Below, one piece after another: positions 645 to 39,184 of a stretch of DNA of 39,184 nucleotides. This DNA comes from a virus: the UHGV virus genome UHGV-1367746; one strand, given 5' to 3'. The translations under genes and the position numbers were made by a program. Numbering within the stretch: position 1 is the first letter of the stretch; every line of letters begins with the position of its first letter. Under the pieces are notes generated by a model. That model was given only the letters and a program-made list of their open reading frames with translations, ran no database searches and was not told the DNA's origin.

Positions 645-823
645 ATGCTACATACCTCCTGTATCTATGGTCGGTGACTATCTGTATTGGAGGTATTATG
701 ATTAATATCACCTCCTTCCATCGGTGCAAGCCTTAGGTAAGAACTCGGAGTCTGCCTCCTAAGGTCTTGCATAAAGTCTGCATATGTATATTCACTACAG
801 TAATACTATAAGTAACCGGGGGT

Positions 824-846
824 CTTCCCTATAGTGATAGTTAAGT
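824..846 (-). promoter_or_regulatory. Phage RNAP promoter (phiOR-like), +1 at 829
   Basis: Minus-strand sequence CTTAACTATCACTATAGGGAAGA; matches the 11-member promoter family; T7 also has a promoter after gene 19. Confidence 0.75.
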
Positions 847-940
847 CTAAACTCCTTGTAAAACAGTAGGTTAGACTGGTAGTAACTATAGGTTACTAAC
901 TGCTTATTCATGCAGCTTTCACCTATAGTTATTCATTCAG

Positions 941-2707
941 CTAGTGAAACGTAACGTAGGCCCCTAGTCCCAGCTCGTCGTCCGTATCGTGAGTTACTCG
1001 GACCCCATTGTCCCAGAACTCAGTGTGGATGGACTCGAAGCCTTTCCGTGGGTTCTCCATCTGTTCCTCCAGCCACTCCTCAGTGACTTCACGTTCGCCT
1101 TTGTTGGCATCCTTAGCCATAGACTCAACGAAGAACTGTACACCGATAGCCAGCGCATCAAGTCGGTCATCGTGTGCCAAGGCTCCACGTTCACGAGAGA
1201 TACGGGTCATCTGGTAGAAGAGAGAGTAGATAGGGTTACGAACACCATCCTTATCAGAGGCTGACTGGTAGTCTTGGACGATAGCAGCAGCGTTAACGAT
1301 AAGTCTGTGAGACCCCATGATAGGCTCCAGAACGTCACAGATGCGGAGTTCCTTCTGACCCTTACTCTTCACTTCAGTTACAGCCGCAGGATGGATACGG
1401 GCCGCTACAGGCTTGAATAACTCAAGGTACATACCATCACCGAAGTTACCCTCAATGACGTATTCGTTGACCTTCCACTTACGACCAATCTTAGCCAGAG
1501 CTTCCAGAGTAGAGTCTTCATAACCTCCACGCATACCACCAACTTCCATAGCGAAGATGTAGCCGTTGAGCTGGTATAGTACCGCATATCCAGTTTCATC
1601 CTTACCACGACCACTAGGGTCAATGACCAGAATCTTCTGGGTGTACGAGCTGAAGGCAGAACCTACAGTCTGATACGTGTGGTATGAGTCACCCATGAGT
1701 CCAACGTTAGGAACGTCCTCACGCTTGTTCTGAGGGTTAGGAAGCCATTGGTAGACCATTGGGCTAGACGCTGGGTCCAAGTCTGCTACGATAAGGTCAC
1801 GGAGCTTCAGAGGGTACTTCTCGGCATCACTCAGGTTAGGGTTAAGCATGAACTGTAGAGCGAAGCCAGCTTTACCATAAGACAGCTCACGTTCCTTCAG
1901 GTCCGTATCATCGAATCGTACTTCATCGGTAGGACGCCAGTAGAAGGACTCAGGGTCCTCTTCCAGCTCTGCCTGAAGCATCGGTGCCAGACGGTCGCCG
2001 TAAGACTGCCAGTCCTTCTTATCACGTGGATAACGAGCAGGCCAGATAGTAGTGGTGTATCCACGGCCTTCCAGCTCACGATACAAGGTCATCTCGTTCT
2101 GAGGAGTACCCAGATAGATGATTGTACCTCCCGGCTTCAGGATAGCGTCGAACTCTTTCACAAGCTCTGACAGACGGTCTCTGGCAGCCTGAGTCGCTGA
2201 GTTGTTCGGAACCTCCACGTCATCGGCAATCAGGATGTCAGCACGACTACCAGTCAACTGACCAGTGATACCAACAGACTTAACCGAAGGTGAGTGGTCT
2301 GGCTTGGCTGGCCCAACGTCGAAGCTAATAACCGCATCTCGCTGTCCCTGCTTAGGTTTGAGTTCCTGAAGCTGAGGCATGAGGTCGATGATTCGCTTGA
2401 TGAAGATGGAGTTCGCATCGGCTCGTTCCTTTGAGGCCGACACAATCATGAACTTCAAGTCTGGGTTGTTCCATAACTTCCAGACCACGAAACCACAGGT
2501 CAGAAACGACTTGCCGATACCACGGAAAGCCTGAAGGATGAAGCGGCGATTATCCCCAGCAGCCAGCTTCTTACACATATCTATCTGGCAGCGTGTTGGA
2601 ACCGGAAGGCTAAGAGCTTTCCAGAGAACGAAGATGAAGAATACGAAGTCGTCCCTCATCCTTCGGGTCATTTCTGCCTGTCTTTCAACAGGTGTTTTCT
2701 TAGACAT
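941..2707 (-). CDS. Terminase large subunit (T7 gp19-like, DNA maturase B)
   Basis: 588 aa; extended identity to remembered T7 gp19 ([96 protein letters not shown]). Confidence 0.95.
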
Positions 2708-3137
2708 AGAGTCCCTCCAGCATTAGGTCCCGGACAGAGATAGCCTCCTCTAAAGTAGGACGTGTTGTTCGCATATAGACATTCCCGCGTTTAACCTGAA
2801 TCCTATAACCATTCTGGTGACGGGTAACGCACTTCACTCCCGTCTTAGAGTCATAATGGCTACCCGTATTCCAAGTGTTCTCAGCGGCAGTAACGAGCCG
2901 TAAGTTACTTAAGGTATTATTGCTGGGGTTCCTGTCGATGTGATCTATTTGCATACCATGTGGTATAGGACCATTGGTTAGTTCCCATATCACGCGATGT
3001 GCCCGCTTACTGCCTAGACTTCGTGTCTGTACTATCCAATATCCCATCCGACTTAATGTCCCCACAGGCTTTCCAGTCCTAACGGAGACCAGACCGGATG
3101 GACTCGCCTGGTCCACTTTGTAGTAATCACTTAACAC
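2700..3137 (-). CDS. HNH homing endonuclease (free-standing)
   Basis: 145 aa; HNH motif region [41 protein letters not shown]; inserted between spanin and large terminase genes and overlapping both ends by a few nt. Confidence 0.85.
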
Positions 3138-3564
3138 CTTGGAGCCTCCTTATTGTGTCCTGAAGCGCCTTCTCCTTAAGGTCTGCCTCCTGAGTTATTC
3201 GGATAAGACTTTTAGAAGTTTCTGGGTGTAGTTCGACTCTACCATTAGGGAAGCATCGACTGACATCTGACTCGGTGAGACCTGAGGTGTTGACCTTGAC
3301 GCGCAGCCGCTTATTGTCAGACTTAAGGTCAGCAATAATCCTATCAGTGCTGCCTTCCAACGAGGACATTTCGTCCTGAAACCGTTTGGACACTTTGTTG
3401 ACTTCAGCTTGGACAGCAAGCCTTGTATCTTCCGATGCCTTAAGATTCGAGGTGTATTCTGCATTGACCTTAGCCTCCCACTTATTGTTAGCGGTGTGGT
3501 AGCCACCAGCAAACATCACTGCTGCAAGTAACCACGGAGCCGCTCTCTTTAAAAATTCGAGCAT
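3127..3564 (-). CDS. i-spanin (Rz-like, T7 gp18.5 homolog)
   Basis: 145 aa; N-terminal TM segment; similarity to T7 gp18.5 (MLEFL..., LEGSTDRII.DL.SDNKRLRV.V.T, ALQDTIR.LQ). Confidence 0.85.
   Translation of the reverse strand: MLEFLKRAAPWLLAAVMFAGGYHTANNKWEAKVNAEYTSNLKASEDTRLAVQAEVNKVSKRFQDEMSSLEGSTDRIIADLKSDNKRLRVKVNTSGLTESDVSRCFPNGRVELHPETSKSLIRITQEADLKEKALQDTIRRLQGVK
3195..3419 (-). CDS. o-spanin (Rz1-like lipoprotein) embedded in +1 frame of the Rz gene; start uncertain
   Basis: Embedded frame encodes hydrophobic signal plus lipobox LTISGC followed by short mature peptide; no ATG or GTG near the signal peptide, TTG at 3419 is one candidate (ORF track uses ATG at 3512). Confidence 0.4.
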   Translation of the reverse strand: MLSKLKSTKCPNGFRTKCPRWKAALIGLLLTLSLTISGCASRSTPQVSPSQMSVDASLMVESNYTQKLLKVLSE

Positions 3565-3627
3565 AGTTGCCCTCCCGGTTTATCAGATTTCACGTAGAGT
3601 CGCCTCCACTAGTTAGTGTTAACCATA

Positions 3628-3654
3628 AAGGCCACTACATATAGTAATGACCTT
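3628..3654 (-). promoter_or_regulatory. Conserved RNA hairpin (candidate RNase III processing site, R18.5-like) between small terminase and spanin genes
   Basis: Minus-strand RNA AAGGUCAUUAC-UAUAU-GUAGUGGCCUU forms an 11-bp stem with 2 G.U pairs; member of a 4-copy family with the same stem core. Confidence 0.5.
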
Positions 3655-3665
3655 GAGTCTAACAC

Positions 3666-3929
3666 TTATTGAACACCATACCCTGTGTCATTATCCTCAG
3701 TCGCTGAAAGCACCTTATCGTACTCTGCGTTCAGGGCCTCCATATCAGCCAGCGTCTTCTCGTCAACAGACACCTTGCTTAACACAAAGTTGTGACGAGC
3801 AAGCAGCTTCTCAATGGCGTTGTAGAGCTGAGGTGAACGCTTAGTGTCATCCCGCAAGTCTTGCAGCATGAGTCGAGCACGTTCAGTATCTAGCATTAAG
3901 AGGAACTTCTCTAAGTCCATCTGCGTCAT
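3666..3929 (-). CDS. Terminase small subunit (T7 gp18-like, DNA maturase A)
   Basis: 87 aa; similarity to T7 gp18 (LEMLDT, RSPQLYNAI.KLL.RH.F); synteny. Confidence 0.85.
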   Translation of the reverse strand: MTQMDLEKFLLMLDTERARLMLQDLRDDTKRSPQLYNAIEKLLARHNFVLSKVSVDEKTLADMEALNAEYDKVLSATEDNDTGYGVQ

Positions 3930-4120
3930 GTTTTACCACCTCCTTTAATCGTTTTGTAGACTAGCACACCAATCTGGACAACGGTGTACGCGATAGCTGC
4001 AACGTAGAACCATTCGTTCAGTGTAAGTCCGAAGAAGAACCGACTGGCACCATCAGCCGCAGCGGTCCCAACGATAGGAGAGGCTTTAAGGACCTCATTC
4101 TTGAAGTCTAACTCAATCAT
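3926..4120 (-). CDS. Holin, class II (T7 gp17.5-like)
   Basis: 64 aa; near-identity to T7 gp17.5 core (KA.PIVGT, FFGL.LNEWFYVAAIAYTVVQIG). Confidence 0.9.
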   Translation of the reverse strand: MIELDFKNEVLKASPIVGTAAADGASRFFFGLTLNEWFYVAAIAYTVVQIGVLVYKTIKGGGKT

Positions 4121-4162
4121 AAAACCTCCAGTTTAAAGCGGGTCGTCCTTGACCCAAAGTTG

Positions 4163-6163
4163 TTACCAGTAGTACCAATCACCTTTCCTACTTCTAATTA
4201 GAACAGAGCAATCGGCAACGGGTACTGTAGATACCCCACCAATCCTTATCTCATATAATTTACTGGGTAGTCTTTTCTTAGTTAGAGATGCTTTAAAATC
4301 TGTACCGGTTACAGTGATATATTCTGTCCCCTCCTCACTAGCTATCTGTAGGTCCAGACCACTGGGACTTGCTGGCAACTTAACATAAAGCTGCTGTTCT
4401 GCTGTACTACCGGCGAAATGACCGATAACGGTAGTTGTCCACTCACTCAAAGTCAGCCCTGAGCGCACAAAATCTACATTAAGGGGTTCCTTAATAAGTG
4501 CAGCAGGTGCGTTGTAATTATGCCCGTTAAGTACATAGTAGTTGCTGCTACCAACCTCTACTGTGTCTGCTGTGCAATAGGAGTGGAAGGTTCTTGAATT
4601 ATCAAAACGATAAAGACTTCTGATTAGCACACGCTCTTGATTACTTCTGGTTAAGATACCACAACCAGCAGATAGGTGAAGTGTAGAGATGGTAAGTGTA
4701 TGACTCTCGCTGTTAGCCTTAGACGACAATAATGATACCTTCGGCTCACCCACCTGAGTGAAGTCTTTACTGTTGCCCTCGCAGTACATAACCCCAATGT
4801 CCCACGCAGCAGGGTCCATTGTTACCACACCAGCACCAGATGTATTCTCAGAGCAAATCACACCAACACTAGTAGATAAACCACGACCTAAGATAATACC
4901 AGCACCTATCGTATATTTACTCGCATCATCTGTGATTGGGTCATAACCTAGTCCAGTAGACTTATCTGTACCCCATGCACTAATGTGAGGGAAGTGTGTA
5001 GCATTTACATAGGTATCCCCTTGCTCACCTTCCGTTGAATAACCTAATGCCACGCCCCTTGCACAGTTGTTTGCATGGAGAGTACCCATTTGAAAATACC
5101 AGCAAGCAAACATTACAATGCCATATCTATTAGCATTATATGCATAGATACTACCCATCTCGGATTCTGCACACATTAGTCGTGCGTAAAAACCATACGA
5201 TGCAATGTCTGCACAGTCTATGTTAAGACTGCCAATCAAACGTAGCCCTCGTACTTGGTTCTCAGTATTAGCTACATCAACGGTTTTGGTTCCAATAGGA
5301 AATTTACTAACACGAACAACAGATTTTAATGCAGGCCATGTTGGACCAATTGCTTTAATTGTTGCCCCATTTAGATTCCCACGTAGGTAAGAGGGGATAA
5401 CAACCTCATCTGTTACGTGGTAGGTAGCCTTGCCATCAAGGTTTAATGTGCCTGTAGCTATGGCCAATTTTATAGCAGGTAGACAGTCAAAGCTGGGGTC
5501 GTTCGGGATTGCCCCAAAGTTCTCAGGTGAGTGCTCATCAAGCCCATTCAGCTTACCTACGTTAGTCCAATTGGAATCAGGGGTTGAACCTGCAGGCACT
5601 GTTTTTGGGAGAGCACCATCCCAGCGGTAATAATAACCATCCTCTTCCCTTAGCAGGACCTCGTTCCATAGTGTAACGGTGAAGCCTTTCTCGAAGGAGC
5701 TACGGGTAATATAGCCAATTAGACCAGCCTCCCTGATACTCGAAACTATTCGTCGTGCTTCGTCCTCGCTATCCTTAGCGCTGCCAGCAGAGTTACCAGC
5801 AGCATCGGCATATTCCTTCGCTAAGTCAACAGTTTGGTCTCGCCCTTCTTCTGCAATATGGATAGCCTGAAGCTCCGAATTGGTCAGGTCACTAGCTGTC
5901 AACACTGAGCCATTCCTGAAGTCTACCACTAAGTCAGTTCCAGTCTGACGGTGAATACGAACGACGTCGAAACCTGATTGGTCAGCCAACATCTCAATCA
6001 TCGTTGGATTAAGGAATCGGTAATCTCGACCAACTTCTAGTACACGGTTCAGGGCAGGGTTAGAGCTATTCACCAGCGTAACAACAACAAACGTTCTGGC
6101 TAGGTAGTCGAACTCAATCCTGTACCGAGTGTTTCCTGAAGGGAATTGTGTAATCGTGGACAT
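4163..6163 (-). CDS. Tail fiber / tailspike (gp17): T7-like N-terminal adaptor domain with divergent C-terminal receptor-binding domain
   Basis: 666 aa; N-terminal about 150 aa matches T7 gp17 (F.YLAR.FVVVTL, DYRF, D.T.GS.L.A.DL); remainder lacks T7 shaft repeats and looks like a beta-helix tailspike (inference). Confidence 0.9.
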
Positions 6164-6232: not shown

Positions 6233-9200
6233 CCTTGATGTGGATGCCTTGCTCCTCAAACGTTCCAAGTAACAGCTTCTGGGTAATTGGGTCGTTCGGA
6301 ACCAGTTCACGGAACGTATTATACATCCCGGTCATGTAGTCACGCTCGTTGACGCGAGTATCAGCCTTGAGGTAGCCAGCCAAGTTGTAAGCCGAAGCGC
6401 CAACGTTAGCAGCATATCCGAAAGCTGGAACCTGCTCCAAGAAGTTACCAACAACATTCATAACAGGGTCACTTGTAGCCGCACCATACGCGATGGCACG
6501 TTCAGGCTTCTCTGTAGGCGAACGAGGTAGGATAGACGAACGGAGCATCTTAGTGTCCTCATACCCAGCGATGCCACCCAGAATGTTAGCTACCCCAAGT
6601 GGACCACCCAGATGTGAACTACGGGACAGAGCCGCATAACCAATCATCGTCGGGTCAAGAGCTTGCTTGAGGTATTCACGGTCTCTGCCATCCTGCATAG
6701 CGTAAGCCTTGACGTGAGCCTGAGCCATGTAGTAGATACCAGCCAGACCCATAGACATCACGGTAGATAGAGCAGCATCCATCGCTCGGTTGTTCTTCGT
6801 GGCGTTATAGAAGGTTCGCATGGTACGTCCATTGATGGACTTGATGACGAAGTTCTTAAACTGAAGGACAGTCTTAGCGAGAGGACCATAAGCCTTGGCA
6901 TCCATGTTTGACAGCTTGTGGGGCCGGAGTAACGTTTCGTCAGCGATGGTGTCACCCATACGCCACAGGTCCATAGCCCTTGGGTCCTGACTGAACGCCC
7001 TCTTATCCTTGATGGTGTACTTCCCGTCTGGACCACGAGTCACTGACTCACGGATTAATGACTTAATGCCCTTCCACTGCTCGTCAGATATACCAGCGGT
7101 CTTCAGCCAGCGGTCATCGAACTTACGCTTACTACCAGTCAGGCTATGCTCCACGATGTCAGACAGGAAGCCTTGACGTCCAGCATCTAACAGGTAGTTG
7201 GTCGTACCGTTGAGAACTTTAGTGAACGGAGAGCGTACTGCAAGTTCACCAGTGTAATACTTGGCAGTCCCCAGAGCTGTAGCTGTACCACGACCGAGGT
7301 CACTGTAAGACCGCAGACGGTCAATGACATCCTGTTTAGATGGGCGTATTGAGTCATCAAGTTCCTTACCAAAGATAACATTGTGCAGGTCCTTAATCTC
7401 TGAGGCCCCAACCTTCTTGTTACGGAAGGCTAGGTCACGGAAAATTGGGACTCCATGCAGCATTGCACGAACGTTACCACGGGCCAGCATACCACCAATC
7501 TCCGTTAAGTTCTGAACACCCATATAGGCATTCTTAGCGAAGAACGATAGGTCTGTCATTGTGCGCATCACGGTAGCGAAGGCTGCATCGTCAGCACCAT
7601 CACGTCGAGCACGACCAGTTAGAATCTTAAGTGTGTCACGCAAGGTAGATACTTCACCTTTCAACTTTCCGTCATCACCAGCCTTGTTCATCATGGTCTC
7701 AACCAAGTCCTTCATTTCTTTCGTTGTCTTGCCTGTACCAGCCATAATAGCAATGTCACCATTAACTCGACGGTTGTATGCCGGGACAATCTTGTCCATG
7801 TCCCACTCACGCAGGTTGTTGACACTGAAGGTTTGACCATTAGGAAGAACTATTGACATATCGCTGTCGAACAGGTTACGAGCCTCAAGGAAGCTGTTGT
7901 TCTCCAGACCCACCAGACCATTGATGTTCTCTTCCATTACGGATGAACGCTCGAACTGCTCGGTGTGAGAGATACCATAAGCCTTATCGTTGGCGTACTT
8001 ATCTACCGCAGCCGCAAGTCCTTCTGGAGTCAACGTAGGGTCAGCCTCTAAGAGTGCCTCGTCCACACGTTTCTTGACCTCAGGTCGAGACGCATAGCTG
8101 GTCAACCATGACTTCTTGATGGCCTCCTGTAGTGCCTCTGGACTTCCAAGTTCCTTGATGTACAGCTCCTTCATCTGGTTGCTATATACATGTGGGACGT
8201 AGGTTCCCTTGAATCGGCTACCCGGAAAGATAGACTGAGCGTCTGGACGACCAAACATCGCCGGGTTCTCCATCATCTCACGCTTGGCGTCAAACTGGTT
8301 CTTCAGCAGGTCATAGACTTTCAGTTCTCCCGGAGTCAGTTCAGCCTTCAGGTTCCCACTTCCGTCTTCAATAGCCATAGACACACGCTGGTAGATGTCC
8401 TGACGGAATGCGCCAGAGTCTCTCCAGAATGCTGTCTGGAAGTATGGGTCCTTGAGCGCCTCAGTAACCGCGTCGTCGATGTCGTTGTAGAACCGATGGT
8501 CCACAGCACGAAGTCTCTCGAATACGTCTGACGCAGTGGTCCCGATTTTACCTGAGGCCCCTGACTGCATACCGGTTGGTGAACGCACTAAGTCGGCAGC
8601 GACTCCACGAATCTCAGGGTTCTCAGACCGAAGCAGCTTCAGGCCAATCTCAGTTAGTCCACCAAGGTTCACACCAGCAGCTGCACGTTCAGGCTCAATC
8701 ACTTCGTCAAAGACCTTACGTGTCTTAGGGTTCAGAGGGTTCTCACCAATCAGTATTGAACCATCTTCAAGTCGTACACTACCCGGCTCATTCGGAACGT
8801 CAGCTAACTTAACGCCTTGATGACTAAAGGTCTCCTCACCTTCTTGAATAGGTAGACGAGACAGGTCCTGACCATCAACGTTACGGGCTGTCTCACGAGC
8901 TTCCAGACGTGTGGCTGGACCAGCGAACTCGTTAGTGTTACGACCTAAGGCTCTGCCTAAACCATCAGCGATAGCAGTCATACCTCCACCGAAGAGAGCA
9001 CCGCCAAGGATAGCCTCAGCCACATGAGCATCACCGCCAGCCACTGAGGTACGGGCCATCTCGGACACACCAGCCAGTGCTCCAGATTGAGCAGCCACGG
9101 TGAACATCTTGTTTACTAGCTTACCACCTTTACCAACCTGTCCAGCTATAGGAACGTAGGTCAGCGGGTCTACACCAGCACCAATCACACCAGCAGCTAA

Positions 9201-10120: not shown

Positions 10121-12403
10121 TTACTCCTTACCGATTAGTACGTTTGCGATACCCTCCAGTGAGACGTCATTGTACATCCCACCGCGCTTCTCGATGTCGG
10201 CCTCTCGGTCAGCTCGACGTTTATCACCAGCAGCTTTAGTCCCGACGATACGCGCTCGCTTGTTAGCGTCACGTTCTGCCTGAGCGTATGCGGCATCCTG
10301 TGCCTTCTGCTGTTGTTCGCGGTAGAGTTTACCTACAAGTTCTTTATCGTAGCGAATACGAATAGTACCTGTAGCGTCTTGGAGGAAGATAGAGCCGTTC
10401 TGTTCAACAACGGACAACTGAGAGTTCACTACCCAAGGGTTGGCCTTAATGAGCTGCTTACGGGCGGTGTCGATAATGTCTCGACCTACCTGCCACGACT
10501 CAGGGTTATCCCCGACCATAAGCTGGTGCTTGGACACCATGCCGATGGACTTACCGTCAGAGCCTTCAGACTGGAACGTTACGGTATTTTCATTCAGCCA
10601 TCGTTGAGTCTGCTGAGTTGCAGCGTCAGCGTTACCTGTACGATAGTACCATGAGTCCCAGACCTTACGAGCACTTGAGTCCAGAGACGTAGGAAGACGC
10701 GAAAGGTCCTTATTCCGAGAGTCGTTCTTCAACTCCTGCCACGCCTTGTCTGACTCCATGCGCATCTCACGGCTTTGACTTGCAGCTTGCTTATCAGCTT
10801 CAATCATCGTCTGAGGGTCCAGACCCATCTTGTCCATCTGGTCGAACGTAGAGAACAACTGAGCTTGGTCAGGATACAGAGCAGCGAAACTTGAAGGGTC
10901 CTGAGTGTAGGCACGACGAAGAGACTCGAAGCGCTTCATCTTGTCTGGGTCGTACTGTCCACGGATGACCGCAGCTTGCCACTCACCAGCAGCGTCCTGA
11001 GTAAGCGTCTGGAAGGCATTACGGAACGGACCGTTGTTAGTGTCAGCTCTTAACAATGCCACCTTCTGAGCGTCCTTAGCAGCCTCAGGGATGTCCATCT
11101 GGTCAATCTGCTGTAGCTTGGCAGACGCATAGTTGTTCATGTCTGAACGCTTGAACTCTCCTGTAGCTTCAGAGACCGGAAGGTCCTCATAGTTGGTGGA
11201 CACGTTGTCCCCAGCCAGACGTCGCTGATAAACTTGGTCGATGACCAGTTGCTTGTTCTGGGTCTGGATTAACTTAGTGTTCTCCTTTGCCTGTTCAGCA
11301 GACTTACGCTTGACCGCTTCCAGTAAGCTGGCTTCGGCATTAATAAGCATCTGACGCTGAGGAGTGAGTTCTTCACCCGGCTGAAGCAGGTTGTTCTGCT
11401 CCTTGAGTTTCTGAATCTGGGCAAGACCAATGGTTGGGTCATCCTGAAGAATCGCAGACTGAACGCCTAACGCTAAGTCTTCCTGATACTTAGCCACCAG
11501 CTTGTACTCAGTTCCTTGTGCCTCAACAATAGCAGCGTTGAAGACATCAGGTCCTACAATCTCTTCGACTGTAGCGTCCACACCGTTAAGGGTTATTCGC
11601 TCGCCTCGTACTTGCTGTAGGAAGTTTGAGCCTCCTGACTTCTGGATTGCGTCACGGACCGTCTGGGTGATGACCTCTCGTGCTCTCTGGTCCGAAGGTA
11701 TAGCAGCAGTCGTCAGTCCATCCCGAAGGTAGGCCATGAAGGTCTTTCCAGACTCAGGCGAACGCATCAGGTCCCCATCGTTAAGGAACGAGTTCAACTC
11801 AATACGAGTGTTCAACATTGCTGTCTCTTCAGACTGCTTGCTGAAATACTTATTGAAGGACCCGTAGATAGCGATGTTTCGGTCCGTGATGTTATCGTTG
11901 AATCCACGCTGGAAGAACTCGTCGGTAGGGTTAATACCTGCCTCTTCAGCATAGGACTTAGCGGCATCCTGAAGTCGCTGGTGGCGATATTCTTCCATTT
12001 CCTGACGTGTGCGGAACTCACCGTTCTGAATCTTAACGTTAATCTCGTCGTCTACAGCAAAGGCAGCATTACGACCAGTCTTGACTCGAAGTGCTTCCAT
12101 AGCGTAAGGGTCATCCTGATACAGCAATGTGCCATTCTGGATAGCCTCACGTCTCTGCTGAGGTGTCAACTTACGGATAATCTCGTTAGACCGCTCGTCA
12201 GCTCTGGTCTTCTCATCGTCCTTGAACTGCTTGTACAATCCTGTCCCAGACTCAACGAAGTTAGTTAACGCACGAGCCAGACCGGAGTCACCAGTTGGAG
12301 CCTGAACGCTGGCTGCTTGATAGTTGACGGCGATAGTTTTACCCGGCGCTCTGCCACGACCCATAGTCCGATTAGCCAGAGCTGATTCAATATTACTAGC
12401 CAT
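10121..12403 (-). CDS. Internal virion protein C (gp15-like)
   Basis: 760 aa; similarity to T7 gp15 (ERSNEIIRKLTP.QRREA..NGTLLYQDDPYAMEALRVKTGRNAA, EEMEEYRH.RLQ); synteny. Confidence 0.85.
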   Translation of the reverse strand: MASNIESALANRTMGRGRAPGKTIAVNYQAASVQAPTGDSGLARALTNFVESGTGLYKQFKDDEKTRADERSNEIIRKLTPQQRREAIQNGTLLYQDDPYAMEALRVKTGRNAAFAVDDEINVKIQNGEFRTRQEMEEYRHQRLQDAAKSYAEEAGINPTDEFFQRGFNDNITDRNIAIYGSFNKYFSKQSEETAMLNTRIELNSFLNDGDLMRSPESGKTFMAYLRDGLTTAAIPSDQRAREVITQTVRDAIQKSGGSNFLQQVRGERITLNGVDATVEEIVGPDVFNAAIVEAQGTEYKLVAKYQEDLALGVQSAILQDDPTIGLAQIQKLKEQNNLLQPGEELTPQRQMLINAEASLLEAVKRKSAEQAKENTKLIQTQNKQLVIDQVYQRRLAGDNVSTNYEDLPVSEATGEFKRSDMNNYASAKLQQIDQMDIPEAAKDAQKVALLRADTNNGPFRNAFQTLTQDAAGEWQAAVIRGQYDPDKMKRFESLRRAYTQDPSSFAALYPDQAQLFSTFDQMDKMGLDPQTMIEADKQAASQSREMRMESDKAWQELKNDSRNKDLSRLPTSLDSSARKVWDSWYYRTGNADAATQQTQRWLNENTVTFQSEGSDGKSIGMVSKHQLMVGDNPESWQVGRDIIDTARKQLIKANPWVVNSQLSVVEQNGSIFLQDATGTIRIRYDKELVGKLYREQQQKAQDAAYAQAERDANKRARIVGTKAAGDKRRADREADIEKRGGMYNDVSLEGIANVLIGKE

Positions 12404-26617: not shown

Positions 26618-28602
<1,985 letters not shown>

Positions 28603-28626: not shown

Positions 28627-29085
28627 TTAACCACGGTCGGAAGTGACCAGTTCGTTGGTAGATAGCCAGCGTTGCAAGTCAAAACTTGGACACGCCTTCG
28701 GTGCCACGTCATGGTGTGCTTTGATTTCTGCCTGAGGATACAGGACCTTCAGGTCAGCCAGCTTGTTGCGCAGGGAGTTCATCTGGGCTGGAGTGAAGTT
28801 AGCTTCAAACTGACCCTTAGCGTCTATTCCACCTACAAGGCAGACGCCTACAGACCGTGAGTTCCAGTCCTTAACATGTGACCCTACGACATTGACCGGG
28901 CGGCCCTCTTCCACAGTACCGTCACGTTTGATGATAAAGTGGTAGCCTACGTCCAGCCATCCTTGCTGCTTGTGCCACATACGGATGGTCTCTACCCCGA
29001 TGTCCATCTCTGGCTTGGTAGCCGAACAGTGAACGAAGATAGCGTCAGTACGGGACCGTGGGTTGAACTGTACCTTACTTACCAT
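28627..29085 (-). CDS. T7 lysozyme-like N-acetylmuramoyl-L-alanine amidase (gp3.5-like)
   Basis: 152 aa; very high similarity to T7 gp3.5 (VQF..R..TDAIFVHCSATKP, WH..QGWLDVGYHFIIKRDGTVE.GR, GVCLVGGID.KG.F.ANFTPAQM.SLR, AHH.VAPKACPSFDL.RW...NELVTSDRG). Confidence 0.95.
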   Translation of the reverse strand: MVSKVQFNPRSRTDAIFVHCSATKPEMDIGVETIRMWHKQQGWLDVGYHFIIKRDGTVEEGRPVNVVGSHVKDWNSRSVGVCLVGGIDAKGQFEANFTPAQMNSLRNKLADLKVLYPQAEIKAHHDVAPKACPSFDLQRWLSTNELVTSDRG

Positions 29086-30719: not shown

Positions 30720-30742
30720 CTGTCCTACAGTGATAGTTTAGG
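30720..30742 (-). promoter_or_regulatory. Phage RNAP promoter (phi2.5-like), +1 at 30725; single mismatch at -3
   Basis: Minus-strand CCTAAACTATCACTGTAGGACAG upstream of SSB gene. Confidence 0.6.
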
Positions 30743-30896
30743 CCTCAGGACGAATCCGTCCGACCACAAACCCAGCGTCCTCATACTCTTGGGACTTCAA
30801 GGTAGCCTCTTCGAGAGACTTTGCGTACACCGGAACCTCGAAGGACTGAACGCGACCCTCAAGCTCCACGATGTATTTCTTCTCAACCTCAGTCAT
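30738..30896 (-). CDS. Inhibitor of host RNA polymerase (gp2-like)
   Basis: Similarity to T7 gp2 (SFEVP.YA..L.EA, AGF.V.R.RP); start placed at ATG 30896 with AAGGAG RBS (52 aa); ORF track extends to a GTG at 30974. Confidence 0.75.
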
Positions 30897-30974
30897 AAAC
30901 CGCGCTCCTTCCATTGGTTGTATAACGTAATGTAGTCCGGGTTGAGAGTCTTCTCGTACATCTCCCGGCACCAC

Positions 30975-31740: not shown

Positions 31741-31781
31741 TAGCTAGCTAGCACAAAGCAAAGAAACCCAGCAGTCCGAAG
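31741..31781 (-). terminator. TE-like early terminator (intrinsic) after the ligase gene
   Basis: Minus RNA CCCAGUGGUC-UUCG-GACUGCUGGG (10-bp stem, UUCG tetraloop) followed by UUUCUUUGCUUUG; location matches T7 TE after gene 1.3. Confidence 0.7.
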
Positions 31782-31801
31782 ACCACTGGGTTGACGTTTA
31801 G

Positions 31802-33381: not shown

Positions 33382-33420
33382 TTGTAGCTCCAGTTGTTTA
33401 GGTTATAGGGTTAATCATGA

Positions 33421-33445
33421 AGGCCACGACTTTAAGTCATGACCT
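33421..33445 (-). promoter_or_regulatory. Conserved RNA hairpin (candidate RNase III site, R1.1-like)
   Basis: Minus RNA AGGUCAUGAC-UUAAA-GUCGUGGCCU, 10-bp stem with 2 G.U; immediately downstream of the promoter at 33457. Confidence 0.5.
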
Positions 33446-33451
33446 TGAGTC

Positions 33452-33474
33452 TAATCCTATAGTGATAGTTTAGG
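33452..33474 (-). promoter_or_regulatory. Phage RNAP promoter (phi1.1-like), +1 at 33457
   Basis: Minus-strand CCTAAACTATCACTATAGGATTA. Confidence 0.75.
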
Positions 33475-34020: not shown

Positions 34021-36702
34021 TTAAGCGAATGCAAAGTCTGAAGACAAGATGTCCTCGATATTCAGTTTACCTTTCTTCGGAAGCTCAGGCAACTTGTCGC
34101 GCTGGCTCTCGTGAAGCTGGTATTCAAACTGCTCGTAGAAGTCAAGCAGCACATCGTTGTCGCGGTAAGTCTCTACCATCGTCTCACGGACGCCACGGAA
34201 CAGATACTCAGCGTCAGCCGGGATGGTCCCGAAGCTATCGTGAATCACTGCGAATGACATCACGCCATACTTGCGGTGAGTGTGGACTACAGTCTTTCGG
34301 AGGTGGCTACCATCTTGTGAGTGGACGAAGTTCGGGCTAATGCCTGACTCCTGCTTGTGCTTGTCCAGCTCTTTCTTCGTGCCTTTGTTGACTGTAGGCT
34401 GAAGGTTGAATGACCCTAAGAACATCAGGTTCAGACGAGTGGTATCCTTCTTGCGGTATTCCTGCCATACCGGGAACCCATCAGGTGTGACCCAGTGTAC
34501 CGGAAGACAAGGCTTCAGGATTTCTCCAGTCTTCTTGTCCTTCACCTCAGCAGCCAGCAGCTTGGCAGCACCTTGAAGCCACTTCATCGCGTCAACCGCA
34601 GCAACTACTGTCACACTCACAGCTTCCCAAATCATCTTAGCCATGAAGCGAGACGCTTGGCTTGGTTCAGTGAACATAGCGCCAGACCCTGAGTCAATCG
34701 CTGGCATCACGATGTCCTCGTATACTTGGTCTGCGAAGCCGTACTCTTTCGACCCGTAGGCCAGAGTCATGACCGAACGCTTAGTGACCTTGCGTGACAT
34801 ACCGTAGGTCAGCCACTGACGGGCCAGCTCTCGTGTCCCCAGCTTGAGACGCTCGGTAATCTCACCAGTTTTCTTGTCCTCGTGAGTTGCCATCTCGTTG
34901 TCCGTACCGTTAACCAGCAGGACTTTGAGTTCCTCCTCAATGCGGTCAGACACAATGCGATAGATGTCTTGGACCTTACCGGATGGCGTTAGGTTTACTG
35001 CATGCCCACCGATGTGGTCACGAAGCATCGCGCTGAAGTGCTGAATCCCAGAGCAGGACCCATCGAAAGCTATCGGCAGCGAGCAGGAGTAAGACAAACC
35101 GTGGTGCATTACGCCAGCATACTCGAAGCAGAACGCTAGGAAGCAGAACGGAGAGTCTAACTTACCCCACCACTCAATGCTGTCCATCGGTGCCTTAGCG
35201 GTAGCCATGATGTTGTCGTGGTTATCTTCCACCCACTTGATGCGCTCCTCGAAGGTTACTTTATCAATACCCGCACAGTTTGCACCGTGGACCTTCAGCC
35301 ATTTGAAACCATCAGCACCAATAGGCTTACCGACTGCCAGAGTCAGGAGACCCTTTTGCATGTCGTTACCCTGAGGGTTGAACATCGGCACAGCGTAGAC
35401 GCGACCGCGCCAGTCCATGTTGTACGGAAACCAGATGGCCTTGAACTGAGAGAACTTGTTCGCTTGGTTAACGATAAAGCTCAGTGACAATCTACGTGAC
35501 TGCCGGGCCTTCTCTCGGCGGTAGATACCAGCAGCAGCCTTCTTCCATGCCTTGAGTTCCTCTTCAGTCTCACCCGCATAGTCTTCAGGCTTCAGTGGCT
35601 CCATCTGAGGGATGTCATCAATAGGTGTGTTGTTCAACTTCTCGACCATGTTCACCACGTCCAGCACCTTCTTGTTCACTTTCCAAGGTGTATTCTGGAT
35701 GATATTCACAGCGTCATAGACTTCAGGCATGTATACGTCTTCATAACGTGCCACCGCTGACTTAGACCCTAAGCGAATCAGGGGCAGCGGTCTGCGACCT
35801 TTGGCCCAGTACCCACCGCCTACGACACCAGTCCACGGCTTAGGTGGAACGACGCAAGGCTGGTAGACTGGAGCGATACCCGCAAGGCTGAATCCTCGTT
35901 GTGCCATCTTCTTGACCCAGCAGTCTGACAGGTGGACCATCTCTACGTCAGCCGCTGCATTGCCAGCACCGTACCGCTTAAGCTCGACCAGTTGTGTTGA
36001 CTGGATGACAATCTCAAGCATCTTGATGCCAACGTGGACAGCCTCTGTAGGACTCCAAGTCCCCCACGCATCTTCCAGTTGGCCTTGCTCCAGCATGGAT
36101 GCCTCGACCGCTTGCATGTAGGCTTTCTTGTAGGACGCCCCGGCCCGCTTATTCAGGTTATCAGCTATCGCCTTCTTGAAGTGCTCTTTCTCCTTGTCAC
36201 GGATGCGGCCGAAGCGGATTTCGTCCTCAAGTGTGCGACCTATCGCGGAGGCCATCGGTGTAATCGGTATCCCTTCAGGCTTGACCAGCTTGGAGAGTAT
36301 GACCTTCAGTATGATAACCGCAGCAGACTCACATGAGATGCGCAGAGAGCGGTCCTTGACGGCCTTCTCTTCAGTGCTCAACATGGTGAACGCCACGCTA
36401 GGACGAGAGGTTGACAGCTTCCCGTCTGGCCCTTCATGCCACTCCCTTACGGCTTGCGCAATCTTAGGGACCAGAGTCTGCATCAAAGGCTTGGCGACCT
36501 GATTGTCTGCCAGTTCCCCGCGCTCAGTCTGGCGCTCAAGGTTCTTGATGAAACGTCGCTCGCCTTCAGTGTATGCCTCGTGCTCAAGCTGAAGCTGTTT
36601 GACTGCAAGGTCTTGCCCGTAGTGGTCAGCCAGCAGGTTAAACGGCTCAATGGCGTTCGACACATCAGAGAAGTCGTGTTTTTCAATAGAGATGACGCTC
36701 AT
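34021..36702 (-). CDS. Single-subunit DNA-directed RNA polymerase (T7 RNAP-like, gene 1)
   Basis: 893 aa; extensive identity to T7 RNAP (DFSD, PFN.LADHYG, IWFPYNMDWRGRVYAV.MFNPQGNDM.KGLLTLA.GKPIG, WLK.HGANCAG.DKV.F.ERIK..E.NH.NIMA, DSPFCFLAFCFEYAGV.HHGLSY.CSLP.AFDGSCSGIQHFSAMLRD, RSVMTLAYGSKE.GF, HDSFGT, C-terminal FAFA). Confidence 0.98.
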   Translation of the reverse strand: MSVISIEKHDFSDVSNAIEPFNLLADHYGQDLAVKQLQLEHEAYTEGERRFIKNLERQTERGELADNQVAKPLMQTLVPKIAQAVREWHEGPDGKLSTSRPSVAFTMLSTEEKAVKDRSLRISCESAAVIILKVILSKLVKPEGIPITPMASAIGRTLEDEIRFGRIRDKEKEHFKKAIADNLNKRAGASYKKAYMQAVEASMLEQGQLEDAWGTWSPTEAVHVGIKMLEIVIQSTQLVELKRYGAGNAAADVEMVHLSDCWVKKMAQRGFSLAGIAPVYQPCVVPPKPWTGVVGGGYWAKGRRPLPLIRLGSKSAVARYEDVYMPEVYDAVNIIQNTPWKVNKKVLDVVNMVEKLNNTPIDDIPQMEPLKPEDYAGETEEELKAWKKAAAGIYRREKARQSRRLSLSFIVNQANKFSQFKAIWFPYNMDWRGRVYAVPMFNPQGNDMQKGLLTLAVGKPIGADGFKWLKVHGANCAGIDKVTFEERIKWVEDNHDNIMATAKAPMDSIEWWGKLDSPFCFLAFCFEYAGVMHHGLSYSCSLPIAFDGSCSGIQHFSAMLRDHIGGHAVNLTPSGKVQDIYRIVSDRIEEELKVLLVNGTDNEMATHEDKKTGEITERLKLGTRELARQWLTYGMSRKVTKRSVMTLAYGSKEYGFADQVYEDIVMPAIDSGSGAMFTEPSQASRFMAKMIWEAVSVTVVAAVDAMKWLQGAAKLLAAEVKDKKTGEILKPCLPVHWVTPDGFPVWQEYRKKDTTRLNLMFLGSFNLQPTVNKGTKKELDKHKQESGISPNFVHSQDGSHLRKTVVHTHRKYGVMSFAVIHDSFGTIPADAEYLFRGVRETMVETYRDNDVLLDFYEQFEYQLHESQRDKLPELPKKGKLNIEDILSSDFAFA

Positions 36703-36771
36703 ACTTAAAGTCCTTGTTATTAGTCTTTCACTTAAAGTCTCTTTGGTCTTTCACTTGGAGTCTTAGACCTT

Positions 36772-36794
36772 GAGTCCTATAGTGATAGTTAAGT
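36772..36794 (-). promoter_or_regulatory. Phage RNAP promoter located directly upstream of the RNAP gene, +1 at 36777
   Basis: Minus-strand ACTTAACTATCACTATAGGACTC, 75 nt upstream of gene 1 ATG; full match to family core CACTATAGG. Confidence 0.65.
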
Positions 36795-36799
36795 CATAA

Positions 36800-37126
36800 T
36801 TACTTGCATATCAGAGGGTTAGCGTGAAGATGACTGAAGTCACCGTGAGTCGTGTGCTTGATGGTTGACCGTTGGTCTATCGCCTTCCAGCCTGAGACCA
36901 GAAGTTTACCATCGTCGGTGATTGGTCGTCCACCATACGCCAGACACATCAGCTCGGACTTATGGCCCTCTGCCCTGAGTCGTGCCTGTAGTACACGGTC
37001 CCGCTCCTGCTGTTGACGTGCGGTGTGACTTGACGTTCCGTGACGATACCCGGTAGCCAGTAGGCTTAACATGTTCATTTCTGCGTCCATAGAGCGTACC
37101 AAATTAATCCCGTATGACTTGTTCAT
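36800..37126 (-). CDS. Hypothetical early protein (ORFan)
   Basis: 108 aa ORF between ocr and RNAP; start ATG abuts stop of upstream ORF; no recognised homolog (T7 has 0.7 kinase here, which is absent). Confidence 0.6.
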   Translation of the reverse strand: MNKSYGINLVRSMDAEMNMLSLLATGYRHGTSSHTARQQQERDRVLQARLRAEGHKSELMCLAYGGRPITDDGKLLVSGWKAIDQRSTIKHTTHGDFSHLHANPLICK

Positions 37127-37323
37127 TACAGTTTGCTCCCAAGAGTTGCTATATCCCAGACGTTCGCTAAGTTACGCGCGAATCGCCCATTAGGTTGGCG
37201 TACAGTCCAGCGGCCCAGACGTGCATAGTTGAATTTATAGACTTTACGTGCCTTGTTGATGTCTCTCATCAGCATGTAGGCGATAAGTCCATAGCCTATG
37301 GCTATCAATAGTTCGATACTCAT
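37126..37323 (-). CDS. Hypothetical small membrane protein (early ORFan)
   Basis: 65 aa; N-terminal hydrophobic helix IELLIAIGYGLIAYMLM followed by basic region. Confidence 0.55.
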   Translation of the reverse strand: MSIELLIAIGYGLIAYMLMRDINKARKVYKFNYARLGRWTVRQPNGRFARNLANVWDIATLGSKL

Positions 37324-37442
37324 AGTGATTTCCGTTTAATACAATCGTATATCCCATAACCTATCATCCAGATAACTGGCGCTAGGCATACCAAATATCC
37401 CACACTCATAGTTAACCCCTATCAATGTAAGTGATAATCTTT

Positions 37443-37468
37443 GAGGCCACCTATCAGTCGATGACCTC
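37443..37468 (-). promoter_or_regulatory. Conserved RNA hairpin (candidate RNase III site) in early region
   Basis: Minus RNA GAGGUCAUC-GACUGAUA-GGUGGCCUC, 9-bp stem with 2 G.U pairs; same stem core as other family members. Confidence 0.45.
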
Positions 37469-37611
37469 TCGTTTATCACTCAGTATCCACCTGTCAGCGT
37501 TATGGTCAAGCTATGGTGATTAGCCACGTAGCAAGCCCCGCGCTTCATCATCTCGTAGCACCCATCGTAGAACGCCTGTTCACTGCTATAAGTTATCTGG
37601 TACATTTCTGC

Positions 37612-37845
37612 TTACCCTTGGAATCCTACAGTGTTAGGCCACAGCGTAACGGTCCTACGCTTGGAGGTGATAAGGTCGGTAAATGATATCCGATATGCTG
37701 TGCCCTCAGGTGCTAGTATGTTGCCCTCATAGACCGCTTTCAGGTGGCGCATAGTCGCATCGTGGTTTAACTGCCCGGTCTTGACCATAAGCCGGGCGTT
37801 GGTGACGTGGTGCTGGCAGAGACCATAAGTCACTATCACTCGCAA
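37612..37845 (-). CDS. Hypothetical early protein (ORFan)
   Basis: 77 aa ORF immediately after ocr; start may be internal (overlaps ocr 3' end by 10 nt). Confidence 0.5.
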   Translation of the reverse strand: MRVIVTYGLCQHHVTNARLMVKTGQLNHDATMRHLKAVYEGNILAPEGTAYRISFTDLITSKRRTVTLWPNTVGFQG

Positions 37846-38180
37846 TCCTCCTCGTCTGCCTCTTCATCCTCAAACCAGACCACATCCGAGCTATTAGACA
37901 CGTCGTTATAAAGCGCCTCATAGATGCGGGCTTGCAGTATACGCGTTACATCCTTGGTTTCAGGCATCAGCCCAGAGTCCTCAAACTCGTGGTCTATACC
38001 ATCAGCAGCCATTACCGTGAAAATCTCGTGGTAATAGTGCGGAACCATATAGTCTACGACTTCATGCAGCGCATCGTAATAATCATCGCCTTCAGCTATT
38101 TCGTCGTACTGAATACGCTCATTGAACAGCTCAACGGTTGCAGCCAGCAGGTCATAGTATGCGTTAGCGTTACGTTCCAT
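37836..38180 (-). CDS. ocr: Ocr-like DNA-mimic anti-restriction protein (gp0.3)
   Basis: 114 aa, highly acidic; similarity to T7 Ocr (N.R.QYDEI...DD..DA.HE..D..VPHYY..IF.VMA..GID.EFEDSGLMP.TKDV.RILQARIYE, acidic C-terminus); first early gene position. Confidence 0.9.
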   Translation of the reverse strand: MERNANAYYDLLAATVELFNERIQYDEIAEGDDYYDALHEVVDYMVPHYYHEIFTVMAADGIDHEFEDSGLMPETKDVTRILQARIYEALYNDVSNSSDVVWFEDEEADEEDCE

Positions 38181-38261
38181 ATTTATATCCTCTCAAAGTT
38201 AATTGTGTGTATGTTAGTGACTATCAATCAGGCCGCTATGAGTCTAACGACCTGTAGTTAA

Positions 38262-38438
38262 TCACTGGCAATTGAACGCATGGTTCAGGCACTTATTGAA
38301 CGCGTCCTGCGCTTGCTCACGGCTATCCCACTCAGTCTTAGACAATCCGTAGATTATCACATGCTTAGTGCGATACTTATAGTCGTTAGCCGTATACCAG
38401 ATTACGCCCAGTTCTTCGTTCATCGCTATGATTTTCAT
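38262..38438 (-). CDS. Small hypothetical early protein (58 aa)
   Basis: ATG at 38438 to TGA at 38262-38264; preceded by the same leader element (hairpin plus TTGATAGTCACTAAC) that precedes ocr; not in ORF track (below 60 aa). Confidence 0.35.
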   Translation of the reverse strand: MKIIAMNEELGVIWYTANDYKYRTKHVIIYGLSKTEWDSREQAQDAFNKCLNHAFNCQ

Positions 38439-38619
38439 AATGTTACCCTATTTAAGTTAGTGACTATCAGTCAAGGCCTTCAGATGTAGACTCAAAGACC
38501 CTGTAGTTAGTCGCTATCGGCGCACATTAAGAGTTTATCCAGATTGTTAAAGAGCATTCGCGTTGGCTGTCGTCGCCGTGCTATCCCGTTTCAGTGTTGG
38601 GACTCACTGTCGTTTCGAT

Positions 38620-38656
38620 GTGGTACAGCTTACAGCTTTTAAAGGAGGCTGTCAAC
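38620..38656 (-). promoter_or_regulatory. Candidate host sigma70 early promoter (T7 A3-like)
   Basis: Minus strand TTGACA-N17-TAAGCT then GTACCACATCGAAACGACAGTGAGTC, which closely resembles my recollection of the T7 A3 promoter start region. Confidence 0.5.
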
Positions 38657-38766
38657 CTGTTATTCTTTTATGCGGTGAGTGACCGAATTCGACTCACAGC
38701 TGGTGCCTTATCCTTGGCTGGTCTCGGGCAGGTTTCTCGGTTCCTATCCCTACGCCATCTTGCTAC

Positions 38767-38804
38767 GTGGTACATACTACTTTAAGTCGGTACAGCTTGT
38801 CAAC
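38767..38804 (-). promoter_or_regulatory. Candidate host sigma70 early promoter (T7 A2-like)
   Basis: Minus strand TTGACA-N18-TAGTAT followed by GTACCACGTAGC; shares downstream motif with promoter at 38620. Confidence 0.45.
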
Positions 38805-38906
38805 TGCTTCTGTCATCTGCCTGTTGTTCGTATGACTTATCAGGCTGTCTACTTAACCGGGATGACCCGGCGTCTTCACTATCGGTTGTTGCCGTGTCGT
38901 GTTGAC

Positions 38907-38943
38907 GGAATCTATTAAGCCATAGTCTAGACCTGTAGTCAAT
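38907..38943 (-). promoter_or_regulatory. Candidate host sigma70 early promoter (A1-like)
   Basis: Minus strand TTGACT-N17-CTTAAT; most upstream of three tandem candidates at the genome left end. Confidence 0.35.
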
Positions 38944-39080
38944 AGGTAATTTGAAATAATATTGAGTAAGCTATCGTCGGCCCCATGGTGTAAGAGGATA
39001 TAGTCTTTGACTAACATGTCTTTGACCTTAAGTCTATAGCTGTGTGTCGATTAACTGTAGGCCTTTGACTGTAGGCGTTG

Positions 39081-39184
39081 GTGTCTTATGGTTGTGACTT
39101 ATGGTTGTGACTTATGGTTGTGACTTATGGTTGTGACTTATGGTTGTGACTTATGGTTGTGACTTATGGTTGTGACTTATGGTT
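39081..39184. repeat. Tandem array of 13-mer gtgacttatggtt (7 perfect copies plus 1 variant gtgtcttatggtt) at window end (terminal repeat region)
   Basis: Direct reading 39081-39184; same unit as positions 1-52, so both genome ends carry the array. Confidence 0.9.

Follow-up and report, generated by a model that had tools for sequence, protein, structure and literature searches.

Does a phage of the T7 family transcribe its polymerase gene from a promoter read by that same polymerase, and if so, was the promoter kept to amplify polymerase synthesis or for some other purpose? The locus considered here lies in a 39,184-bp stretch of DNA (the window), which is the whole genome of a Kayfunavirus (K1F-like, T7-family) phage whose genes all run along the minus strand. 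The segment 36400-37200 matches 216 phage records, headed by Kayfunavirus phages at 96-97% identity, and over the narrower segment 36560-36860 the identity is 98% with K1F and 97% with EcoDS1. As assembled, the window is circularly permuted: one terminal-repeat copy falls at about window 20-239, and the two window ends each hold part of a 13-nt tandem array. The features at the center of the question are:

34021..36702, minus strand: gene 1, encoding the single-subunit RNA polymerase (RNAP) of 893 aa, an intact open reading frame (Pfam RNA_pol, 1.8e-106).
36772..36794, minus strand: phage-RNAP promoter 'phi1', 23 bp (-17 to +6), ACTTAACTATCACTATA/GGACTC, with the +1 G at 36777.
36800..37126, minus strand: gp0.38 homologue of 108 aa, PHROG 7066 (function unknown), directly upstream of the promoter; the name is taken from the EcoDS1, K1F and CR8 records.
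33452..33474, minus strand: the next phage promoter, downstream of gene 1, with +1 at 33457; a member of the same set.

The promoter is placed within the 97-nt gap between genes 0.38 and 1. The stop codon of gp0.38 (TAA, 36802..36800) is 5 nt from the -17 position at 36794, and 75 nt separate the +1 (36777) from the gene 1 ATG (36702). The minus-strand sequence across the site is GCAAGTAATTATGACTTAACTATCACTATA/GGACTCAAGGTC, in which the first G after TATA is 36777, and the 17-mer TAACTATCACTATAGGA occupies 36791..36775 on the same strand. The T7-group core CACTATAG can be read directly from the sequence as ATCACTATA/GGAC, with GG at +1/+2. Searching the window with the 17-mer at up to 3 mismatches returns 10 matches where 0.11 are expected, every one of them on the minus strand, and a 20-mer consensus finds 11 co-oriented minus-strand sites against 0.00 expected. 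With a leave-one-out matrix built from the other 10 sites (+1 at 33457, 31701, 30725, 28374, 22292, 19471, 18465, 13492, 6215 and 829), the gene 1 site scores 32.3 bits and ranks tenth among approximately 78,000 positions, while the best non-promoter site reaches 13.7 bits. These match counts and the matrix score make the gene 1 site a full member of the promoter set, and bear out the initial annotation, which had placed a full phage promoter with +1 at 36777, 75 nt before gene 1.

The gene 1 promoter departs from the majority sequence only at -14, where it has a T that is common to two other members. It starts with GGAC as opposed to the GGGA of the phi10-type, presumed strong late promoters, and in one subclade of relatives the gene 1 promoter alone carries an A in place of T at -2 (CACTAAAGG), a variant seen in T7 class II promoters. 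The GGAC start and the subclade's -2A suggest a promoter of modest to moderate strength, so that the gain of any loop it drives may be small. Overall, the element is very probably a functional class-II-type promoter for the phage's own single-subunit RNAP. The window has no equivalent of the T7 promoter phiOL, in that no further phage promoter was found from the 36777 site to the left end; the gene 1 promoter is thus the leftmost of the 11 phage promoters. A phiOL-like candidate, AACACTGTAGG at 37625-37635, was rejected as it is without the upstream half of a promoter.

Conservation of the site was assessed in 80 IMG/VR loci around relatives of the RNAP, which were searched in two ways, for T7-type cores by means of a regular expression and for recurring 18-mers de novo. 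All 20 loci with an RNAP at least 79% identical have their own promoter directly before gene 1; the count includes one incomplete locus (L016) that was called negative by the automated scan and has the promoter. The +1 of these promoters lies at -75/-76, -81 or, in Citrobacter phage CR8, -102 relative to the gene 1 ATG. A promoter before gene 1 is also found in K1F, EcoDS1, Kc166A, EP1, IME278, PRF-SP11 and MII_004. Positions -18 to -23, just 5′ of the promoter, vary freely among genomes, whereas the promoter is constant. A scan of IMG/VR with the exact 16-mer AAGGACTTTAAGTATG returned mostly unrelated chance matches and almost no new relatives.

A more telling comparison is that between the promoter and the polymerase that would read it. 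Polymerases were aligned, and the residues of the specificity loop were read at T7 positions 748/756/758, giving three lineages:

Window, EcoDS1 and L011: loop N/N/Q, promoter AACTATCACTATAGG (AACTATC).
L017 and L036 (GW1-like): loop D/R/Q, as in a T3-like locus, promoter AACCCTCACTATAGG, TTAAACCCTCACTATAGG (AACCCTC).
CR8 (L015): loop K/Q/R, promoter GGTACACTATAGG, GGAAGGTACACTATAGG (AGGTACA).

Within each lineage the site before gene 1 is that lineage's own version of the promoter, with positions -12 to -8 switching together with the specificity loop. In the GW1-like genomes the lineage-specific promoter sits inside flanks that are otherwise homologous to those of the window. A site that tracks the recognition loop of the polymerase is one kept as a promoter, and the co-variation indicates that the gene 1 site is maintained for recognition by its cognate polymerase. 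The correspondence between loop and promoter has an experimental precedent: when the K1F specificity loop is grafted into T7 RNAP, the chimera activates a promoter with the K1F-subfamily consensus at -12 to -7, with a reported 17-fold induction (PMC3458549).

The arrangement does not extend throughout the T7 family. No cognate promoter was found within 250 nt of gene 1 in 57 loci (T7-, T3-, K11/KP32-type and others) whose RNAPs are 58-63% identical, apart from two cases. One of these, in L064, is a spurious match that resembles a ribosome-binding site and not a promoter; the other locus, L082, which is related to Pseudomonas phages, probably does have a promoter before its RNAP gene. The T3-type genomes have no such promoter within 300 nt of gene 1, the T7- and K11/KP32-type genomes are likewise without it, and none was found in the 3.4 kb before the RNAP gene of SP6. 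In the T7-, T3- and K11-type genomes a phiOL-like promoter is found instead, at -2.4 to -2.9 kb from gene 1. As far as these sequences show, a promoter directly before gene 1 is a trait of a clade and not of the whole family. Its absence from the T7-, T3-, K11/KP32- and SP6-type genomes also means that it is not essential to the T7 lifestyle.

What the promoter would do depends on how the first polymerase is made and on what follows it. The relevant features of the surrounding genome are:

38774..38803, minus strand: candidate host sigma-70-type early promoter, TTGACA-18-TAGTAT, from a consensus scan.
31765..31792, minus strand: early terminator TE, the first terminator-like hairpin on the minus strand, after the ligase gene; annotated equivalently in EcoDS1.
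30738..30974, minus strand: homologue of gp2, the inhibitor of host RNAP (Pfam RNA_pol_inhib, 5.6e-20).
28627..29085, minus strand: homologue of the gp3.5 amidase/lysozyme (Pfam Amidase_2, 2.4e-16).

In T7, host transcription is brought to an end by gp2, and the phage RNAP has its natural inhibitor in gp3.5 lysozyme, which acts especially at weaker or class II promoters. The sigma-70 consensus scan gave 8 sites against 7.7 expected and so is not above chance by itself; the DNA around 38803..38774 aligns with a stretch of EcoDS1 that carries three annotated host promoters. The host promoter candidate and this alignment together provide a priming route and suggest that, as in T7, gene 1 is first transcribed by host RNAP. 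On the minus strand no terminator-like site was found from 39184 to 34021, that is, from the left end to the end of gene 1, and TE is the end of early transcription by host RNAP.

From these parts a circuit can be proposed. Host RNAP would start at the left-end early promoters and read through gene 1 to TE, yielding the first molecules of phage RNAP. The new polymerase would then initiate at G 36777, giving a second mRNA for gene 1, whose 75-nt leader is unstructured and has an AAGGA ribosome-binding site of its own. Gene 1 would in this way be both an early gene and a gene transcribed by the phage RNAP, self-amplifying and independent of the host enzyme after shut-off by gp2, and gp3.5 lysozyme would be the likely brake that damps the loop. 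The layout is that of an autogene: a cognate promoter on the same strand as an intact RNAP open reading frame, with no terminator-like site between them. Together with the gp2 and gp3.5 homologues, this makes for a positive loop that the host primes and that is braked after a delay, in which the parts are present in the genome and the dynamics, including the size of the feedback, are extrapolated from them. Host-primed positive autoregulation of the RNAP is the best-supported mechanism for this locus and a likely one, resting as it does on promoter identity, conservation and co-variation with the polymerase. In the searchable literature we found no transcription start mapping for Kayfunavirus or K1F, nor any report of initiation at 36777.

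The leader of this second mRNA contains several elements of note:

36703..36777, minus strand: A-rich 75-nt leader of the gene 1 mRNA made by phage RNAP, analyzed by folding.
36711..36715, minus strand: Shine-Dalgarno (SD) sequence AAGGA, 8 nt before the ATG, read from the sequence.
36746..36756, minus strand: direct repeat copy 1, AAGTGAAAGAC (extended unit 36743-36763).
36723..36733, minus strand: direct repeat copy 2, AAGTGAAAGAC (extended unit 36720-36740).
36766..36776, minus strand: GACTCAAGGTC (plus-strand GACCTTGAGTC), transcript positions +2 to +12, which also occurs after the next promoter (+1 33457).

Folded from +1, the leader is no more stable than shuffled sequences (dG -12.7, z +0.62), and AAGGA is invariant in all 13 distinct leaders that were aligned. 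With an unstructured leader and AAGGA 8 nt before the ATG, the transcript from 36777 should be translated. The sequence ACTTTAAG bears what we take to be a resemblance to the 'epsilon' enhancer of T7 gene 10.

The initial annotation had drawn attention to two direct repeats and a further motif in the leader, and had suggested that they may modulate translation or processing. There are indeed two exact copies of AAGTGAAAGAC, which are the only two in the whole window; the copy at 36723-36733 had been placed correctly, and the other lies at 36746-36756 rather than 2 nt away at 36748-36758. At 86% identity the repeated unit lengthens to 21 nt, with the two copies spaced 23 nt apart. Any role for them as repeats is doubtful. 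The 13 distinct leaders sort into four leader types: in the GW1-like leaders the upstream copy is degraded (TTCAGTTAAAGACC), and two other types are rearranged, one of them being 6 nt longer. The repeats are therefore not conserved as repeats across the genus. What is kept in all four leader types is AGTGA[A/T]AAGAC beside the ribosome-binding site. The motif reported as gaccttgagtc is present as described, on the plus strand at 36766-36776, and its transcript-sense form GACTCAAGGTC is complementary to the SD/spacer sequence GGACUUUAAGU. The pattern GACTYYAAGK is enriched in the window (13 occurrences against 0.8 expected); as a translation signal it was dropped, since its copies outside the leader lie inside coding sequence and not near start codons.

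A functional promoter at this position need not have been selected through gene 1, because it also serves genes 1.1-1.3 and beyond. Transcription in T7 serves DNA entry and origin function, and the promoter could have been kept for genome entry, for expression of genes 1.1-1.3 or for the priming of left-end replication, with feedback on gene 1 as a by-product. With no phiOL in the genome and no phage promoter further to the left, it would be the first point at which the fast phage RNAP could take over; the T7-, T3- and K11-type genomes have their phiOL-like promoter at -2.4 to -2.9 kb, and transcripts from 36777 must run into the downstream genes, with no terminator-like site following. Against this, the gain in DNA entry would be small, as host transcription would already have brought in gene 1, and probably the 33457 promoter as well, before any phage RNAP exists. 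In addition, the promoter keeps a tightly fixed position, 75-102 nt before the ATG, in three specificity lineages, and the ribosome-binding site there is conserved, which points to gene 1 as the target. Feedback as a mere by-product is accordingly unlikely, and a role in entry or replication is compatible with one in gene 1 feedback.

A further alternative turns on the RNA that reads across the promoter rather than on the RNA that begins at it. The structure concerned is:

36725..36788, minus strand: irregular hairpin of 64 nt and 21 bp, whose 5′ arm is the promoter from -11 to +12 (dG -17.4, z -2.1 to -2.3).

In this fold the promoter core UCACU pairs with the AGUGA of repeat copy 2 in the 3′ arm, and the inner helices are AGG/CUU, CUC/GAG and GGUCU/AGACC. 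Since the 5′ arm starts upstream of +1, only read-through transcripts made by the host RNAP would form the full hairpin. Similar folds are predicted for the other three leader types (z -2.3 to -2.6), and the L011 type forms a perfect 11-bp helix, UAUCACUAAAG/CUUUAGUGAUA, that depends on the -2A present only at its gene 1 promoter. Compensatory changes cannot be counted as support, because promoter function fixes the 5′ arm. The hairpin was not recovered by RNAalifold on a MAFFT alignment of the 13 distinct leaders, where indels misalign the 3′ arm; all that this fold yielded was an invariant pairing that joins +3 to +12 with the SD region, at -4 kcal/mol. The hairpin is also not kept in the CR8 leader, and the only Rfam match in 36500-37000 is to a snoRNA, below threshold (E = 0.34). 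For comparison, the hairpin after the next promoter is far stronger, with a z of -4.7.

The genomic slot of the hairpin, from the gp0.38 stop (36800) to the gene 1 ATG (36702), corresponds to that of the T7 R1 hairpin, which lies within 3100-3171. No sequence similarity to T7- or T3-type genomes was found upstream of the coding region, as the matches to these genomes start at query position 184-186, approximately 25 nt inside gene 1; homology to R1 could thus not be established. The folding predictions nevertheless leave room for the hairpin as an added layer on top of the promoter, and we tentatively put it forward as a possible counterpart of the R1 RNase III site. A more elaborate and more doubtful proposal is that promoter core and leader together form an isoform switch, in which hairpin-bearing transcripts made by the host would be processed or translated otherwise than the unstructured ones made by the phage's own RNAP. 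Expression of gene 1 would then move over from an mRNA that depends on the host and is processed to one that amplifies itself, and the same bases would tune both promoter strength and hairpin strength.

It is a different matter to hold that the conserved sequence acts mainly as RNA, as an RNase III hairpin equivalent to R1, and that its likeness to a promoter is secondary. The shared slot with R1 and the similar folds of all four Kayfunavirus leader types, including the perfect 11-bp helix, are what such a view could draw on. It would leave unexplained why positions -12 to -8 switch with the specificity loop and why the site has a full promoter score over -17 to +6, and the structure itself is weak next to the hairpin after the next promoter, is absent from CR8 and was missed by RNAalifold, all of which makes a primarily RNA-based function highly improbable. 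That the site only resembles a promoter, by chance or through decay, and does not function is effectively refuted by the comparative data, given the 0.00-0.11 matches expected, its conservation in every relative examined and its co-variation with RNAP specificity.

Positive autoregulation of the polymerase from its own promoter is therefore the reading to be set beside what is known of other phages. The site is neither unusual nor new but standard for the genus, and it is annotated in EcoDS1 and CR8. The EcoDS1 record (EU734172) lists, in the interval from gp0.38 to gene 1 (2336), a 'promoter phi' (2244-2266), which is the same element in the same slot, and ten further annotated phage promoters of EcoDS1 match the window's set one for one. 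Its leader matches that of the window and its promoter differs at -18 only; the record is without a functional statement. In K1F the promoter and leader are identical to the window's and in the same slot, with no substantive difference. Citrobacter phage CR8 (Caroctavirus, HG818824) has a 'predicted promoter' at 3356-3378, between 0.38 and gene 1, in the same slot and orientation; it differs from the window in its promoter (GGAAGGTACACTATAGG), its K/Q/R loop, a 102-nt leader with another predicted structure, and an RNAP that is 79% identical. In a Kayfunavirus phage, Sparklingdew, described in 2026, eight CTWAACTATCACTATAGG repeats were reported, one of them at the 3′ end of SPD_007, which by its numbering is directly before the RNAP gene, SPD_008 (PMC13298934).

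T7 itself shares with the window the gene order, the early-to-middle logic and a hairpin-bearing regulatory slot directly before gene 1. The left end of T7 has phiOL at 405, the E. coli promoter C at 3113, R1, gene 1 at 3171 and phi1.1A/B at 5848/5923. The slot before gene 1 is thus filled in T7 by the minor host promoter C (3113), and in the window by the phage's own promoter. The T7 record has no T7 promoter from 405 to 5848, and phiOL, which is rightward and 2.8 kb distant, is the sole T7 promoter upstream of gene 1. Because phiOL (405) points toward gene 1, the earlier claim that gene 1 of T7 is transcribed only by host RNAP is an overstatement.

Autoregulation of this kind has been published for other Autographiviridae. 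In the Pseudomonas phage LUZ100, phi1 lies directly before the RNAP gene, and priming by host read-through followed by positive feedback was proposed (PMC10134795). LUZ100 is a distant, temperate-like relative of T7 whose loop is gated by a proposed MarR-like repressor and whose transcription starts were mapped by ONT-cappable-seq, whereas the window phage is strictly lytic, has no evident repressor and is known here from its sequence. In Vibrio phage phiA318, a predicted phi-A8 immediately before the kinase and RNAP genes was read as autoregulation (PMC4099482); in that SP6/K1E-like phage two genes follow the promoter, which is itself only a prediction. The engineered T7 'autogene' of Dubendorff and Studier (1991), as the text citing it in PMC1500874 presents it, places a cognate promoter before the RNAP gene and gives autocatalytic expression once triggered. 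The T7 autogene is synthetic and plasmid-borne, and the window would hold a natural version triggered by early transcription by the host.

The promoter itself is already known, being annotated in close relatives, and with the idea of feedback also published, little is added here as discovery. What is added is the co-variation evidence, the distribution of the arrangement, the corrected repeat coordinates and the idea of a promoter/leader hairpin. Synthetic biology employs K1F-type polymerase/promoter pairs as orthogonal parts, and naturally co-evolved promoter/polymerase triplets can be taken from these genomes. A natural autogene would make the supply of RNAP independent of a host enzyme soon to be inactivated by the phage, and such a loop might bring speed, make the phage robust across many hosts or let it tolerate weak early promoters. 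Comparison of Kayfunavirus and Caroctavirus, which have the promoter, with T7, T3, K11 and SP6, which are without it, could show what benefit such a loop brings to a lytic phage.

The phage promoter in front of gene 1, the RNA polymerase gene, carries an A at position -2 (CACTAAAGG) in one Kayfunavirus subclade, comprising L011, L012, L013, L018, L019, L171 (EP1) and L172 (IME278). The substitution is confined to the gene 1 promoter, whereas the other promoters examined in these genomes (two to three per locus) lack it and mostly read CACTATAGG, with some reading CACTGTAGG. The variant makes the 11-bp helix with CTTTAGTGATA perfect, and the leader in this subclade is 81 nt long. In the window, a second complementarity joins the first transcribed bases of the gene 1 leader to its SD/spacer segment. 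Every pair of it is invariant in 13 leaders, among which no covariation was found, and the pairing is predicted to contribute only about -4 kcal/mol.

About -100 to -20 relative to the RNAP ATG, -2A subclade: promoter and leader region with the -2A variant
36766-36775 and 36704-36713, minus strand: complementary ACUCAAGGUC (+3 to +12) and SD/spacer GGACUUUAAGU

Candidate promoters also precede the polymerase gene in two more distant loci. L082, a Pseudomonas-phage-related contig whose RNAP is 58% identical, has TTAAAAACCCTCACTTAAAG approximately 100 nt upstream of the RNAP gene and a near-identical second copy 4.5 kb downstream. A promoter in front of gene 1 has probably arisen independently here. 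In L038, a T3-like 36-kb contig, the early genes are missing (region 1-3000); a promoter resembling phiOL, the T7 promoter far upstream of gene 1, lies 617 nt upstream of the RNAP gene, and no ORF of at least 50 aa is found between the two on that strand.

2875-2900 and 7430-7450, L082: the two copies of TTAAAAACCCTCACTTAAAG

The ORF immediately upstream of gene 1 is a gene 0.38 homologue. In the Citrobacter phage CR8, gene 0.38 contains a tandem repeat of which approximately 39 nt are exactly duplicated (-317 to -279 and -266 to -228), while the ends of the copies diverge; the 51-nt period equals 17 codons and the repeat is therefore in frame. The gene is unannotated in the first K1F record (L001, DQ111067; region 2208-2566) and is annotated as a shorter ORF, 2208-2468, in the second (AM084414), and K1F differs from window 36800-37126 by indels in the 5′ half of the gene. 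Upstream of gene 1 (window 36800-39184), minus-strand ORFs do not exceed 114 aa, so the gene 0.7 kinase is absent from this isolate; it is annotated in some Kayfunavirus relatives (EP1, IME278).

About 2680-2777, L015 (CR8), -321 to -224 relative to the RNAP match start: 51-nt tandem unit within gene 0.38

A 13-nt tandem array is divided between the two window ends, with about eight copies at one and about four at the other. Because this split array lies beside a single collapsed terminal repeat, the assembly is circularly permuted relative to the close relative EcoDS1 (EU734172).

1 to ~50 and ~39085-39184: 13-nt tandem array, AACCATAAGTCAC
~20-239: direct terminal repeat, one collapsed copy, adjoining the array

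Elsewhere in the window, a strong hairpin (dG -22.9, z -4.7; none of 200 shuffles was equally stable) begins inside the next phage promoter (+1 at 33457) and probably represents an RNase III site of the R1.1 type. GACTCAAGGTC is common to the leader of this promoter and that of gene 1. The 17-mer search did not pick up an eleventh promoter, whose core is divergent; its counterpart in EcoDS1 is the ‘phi’ annotated at 11107-11129.

33404-33461, minus strand: strong hairpin
28371-28390, minus strand: promoter with core CTAAACTATCACCTTAGGGA, +1 at 28374, preceding the primase/helicase gene
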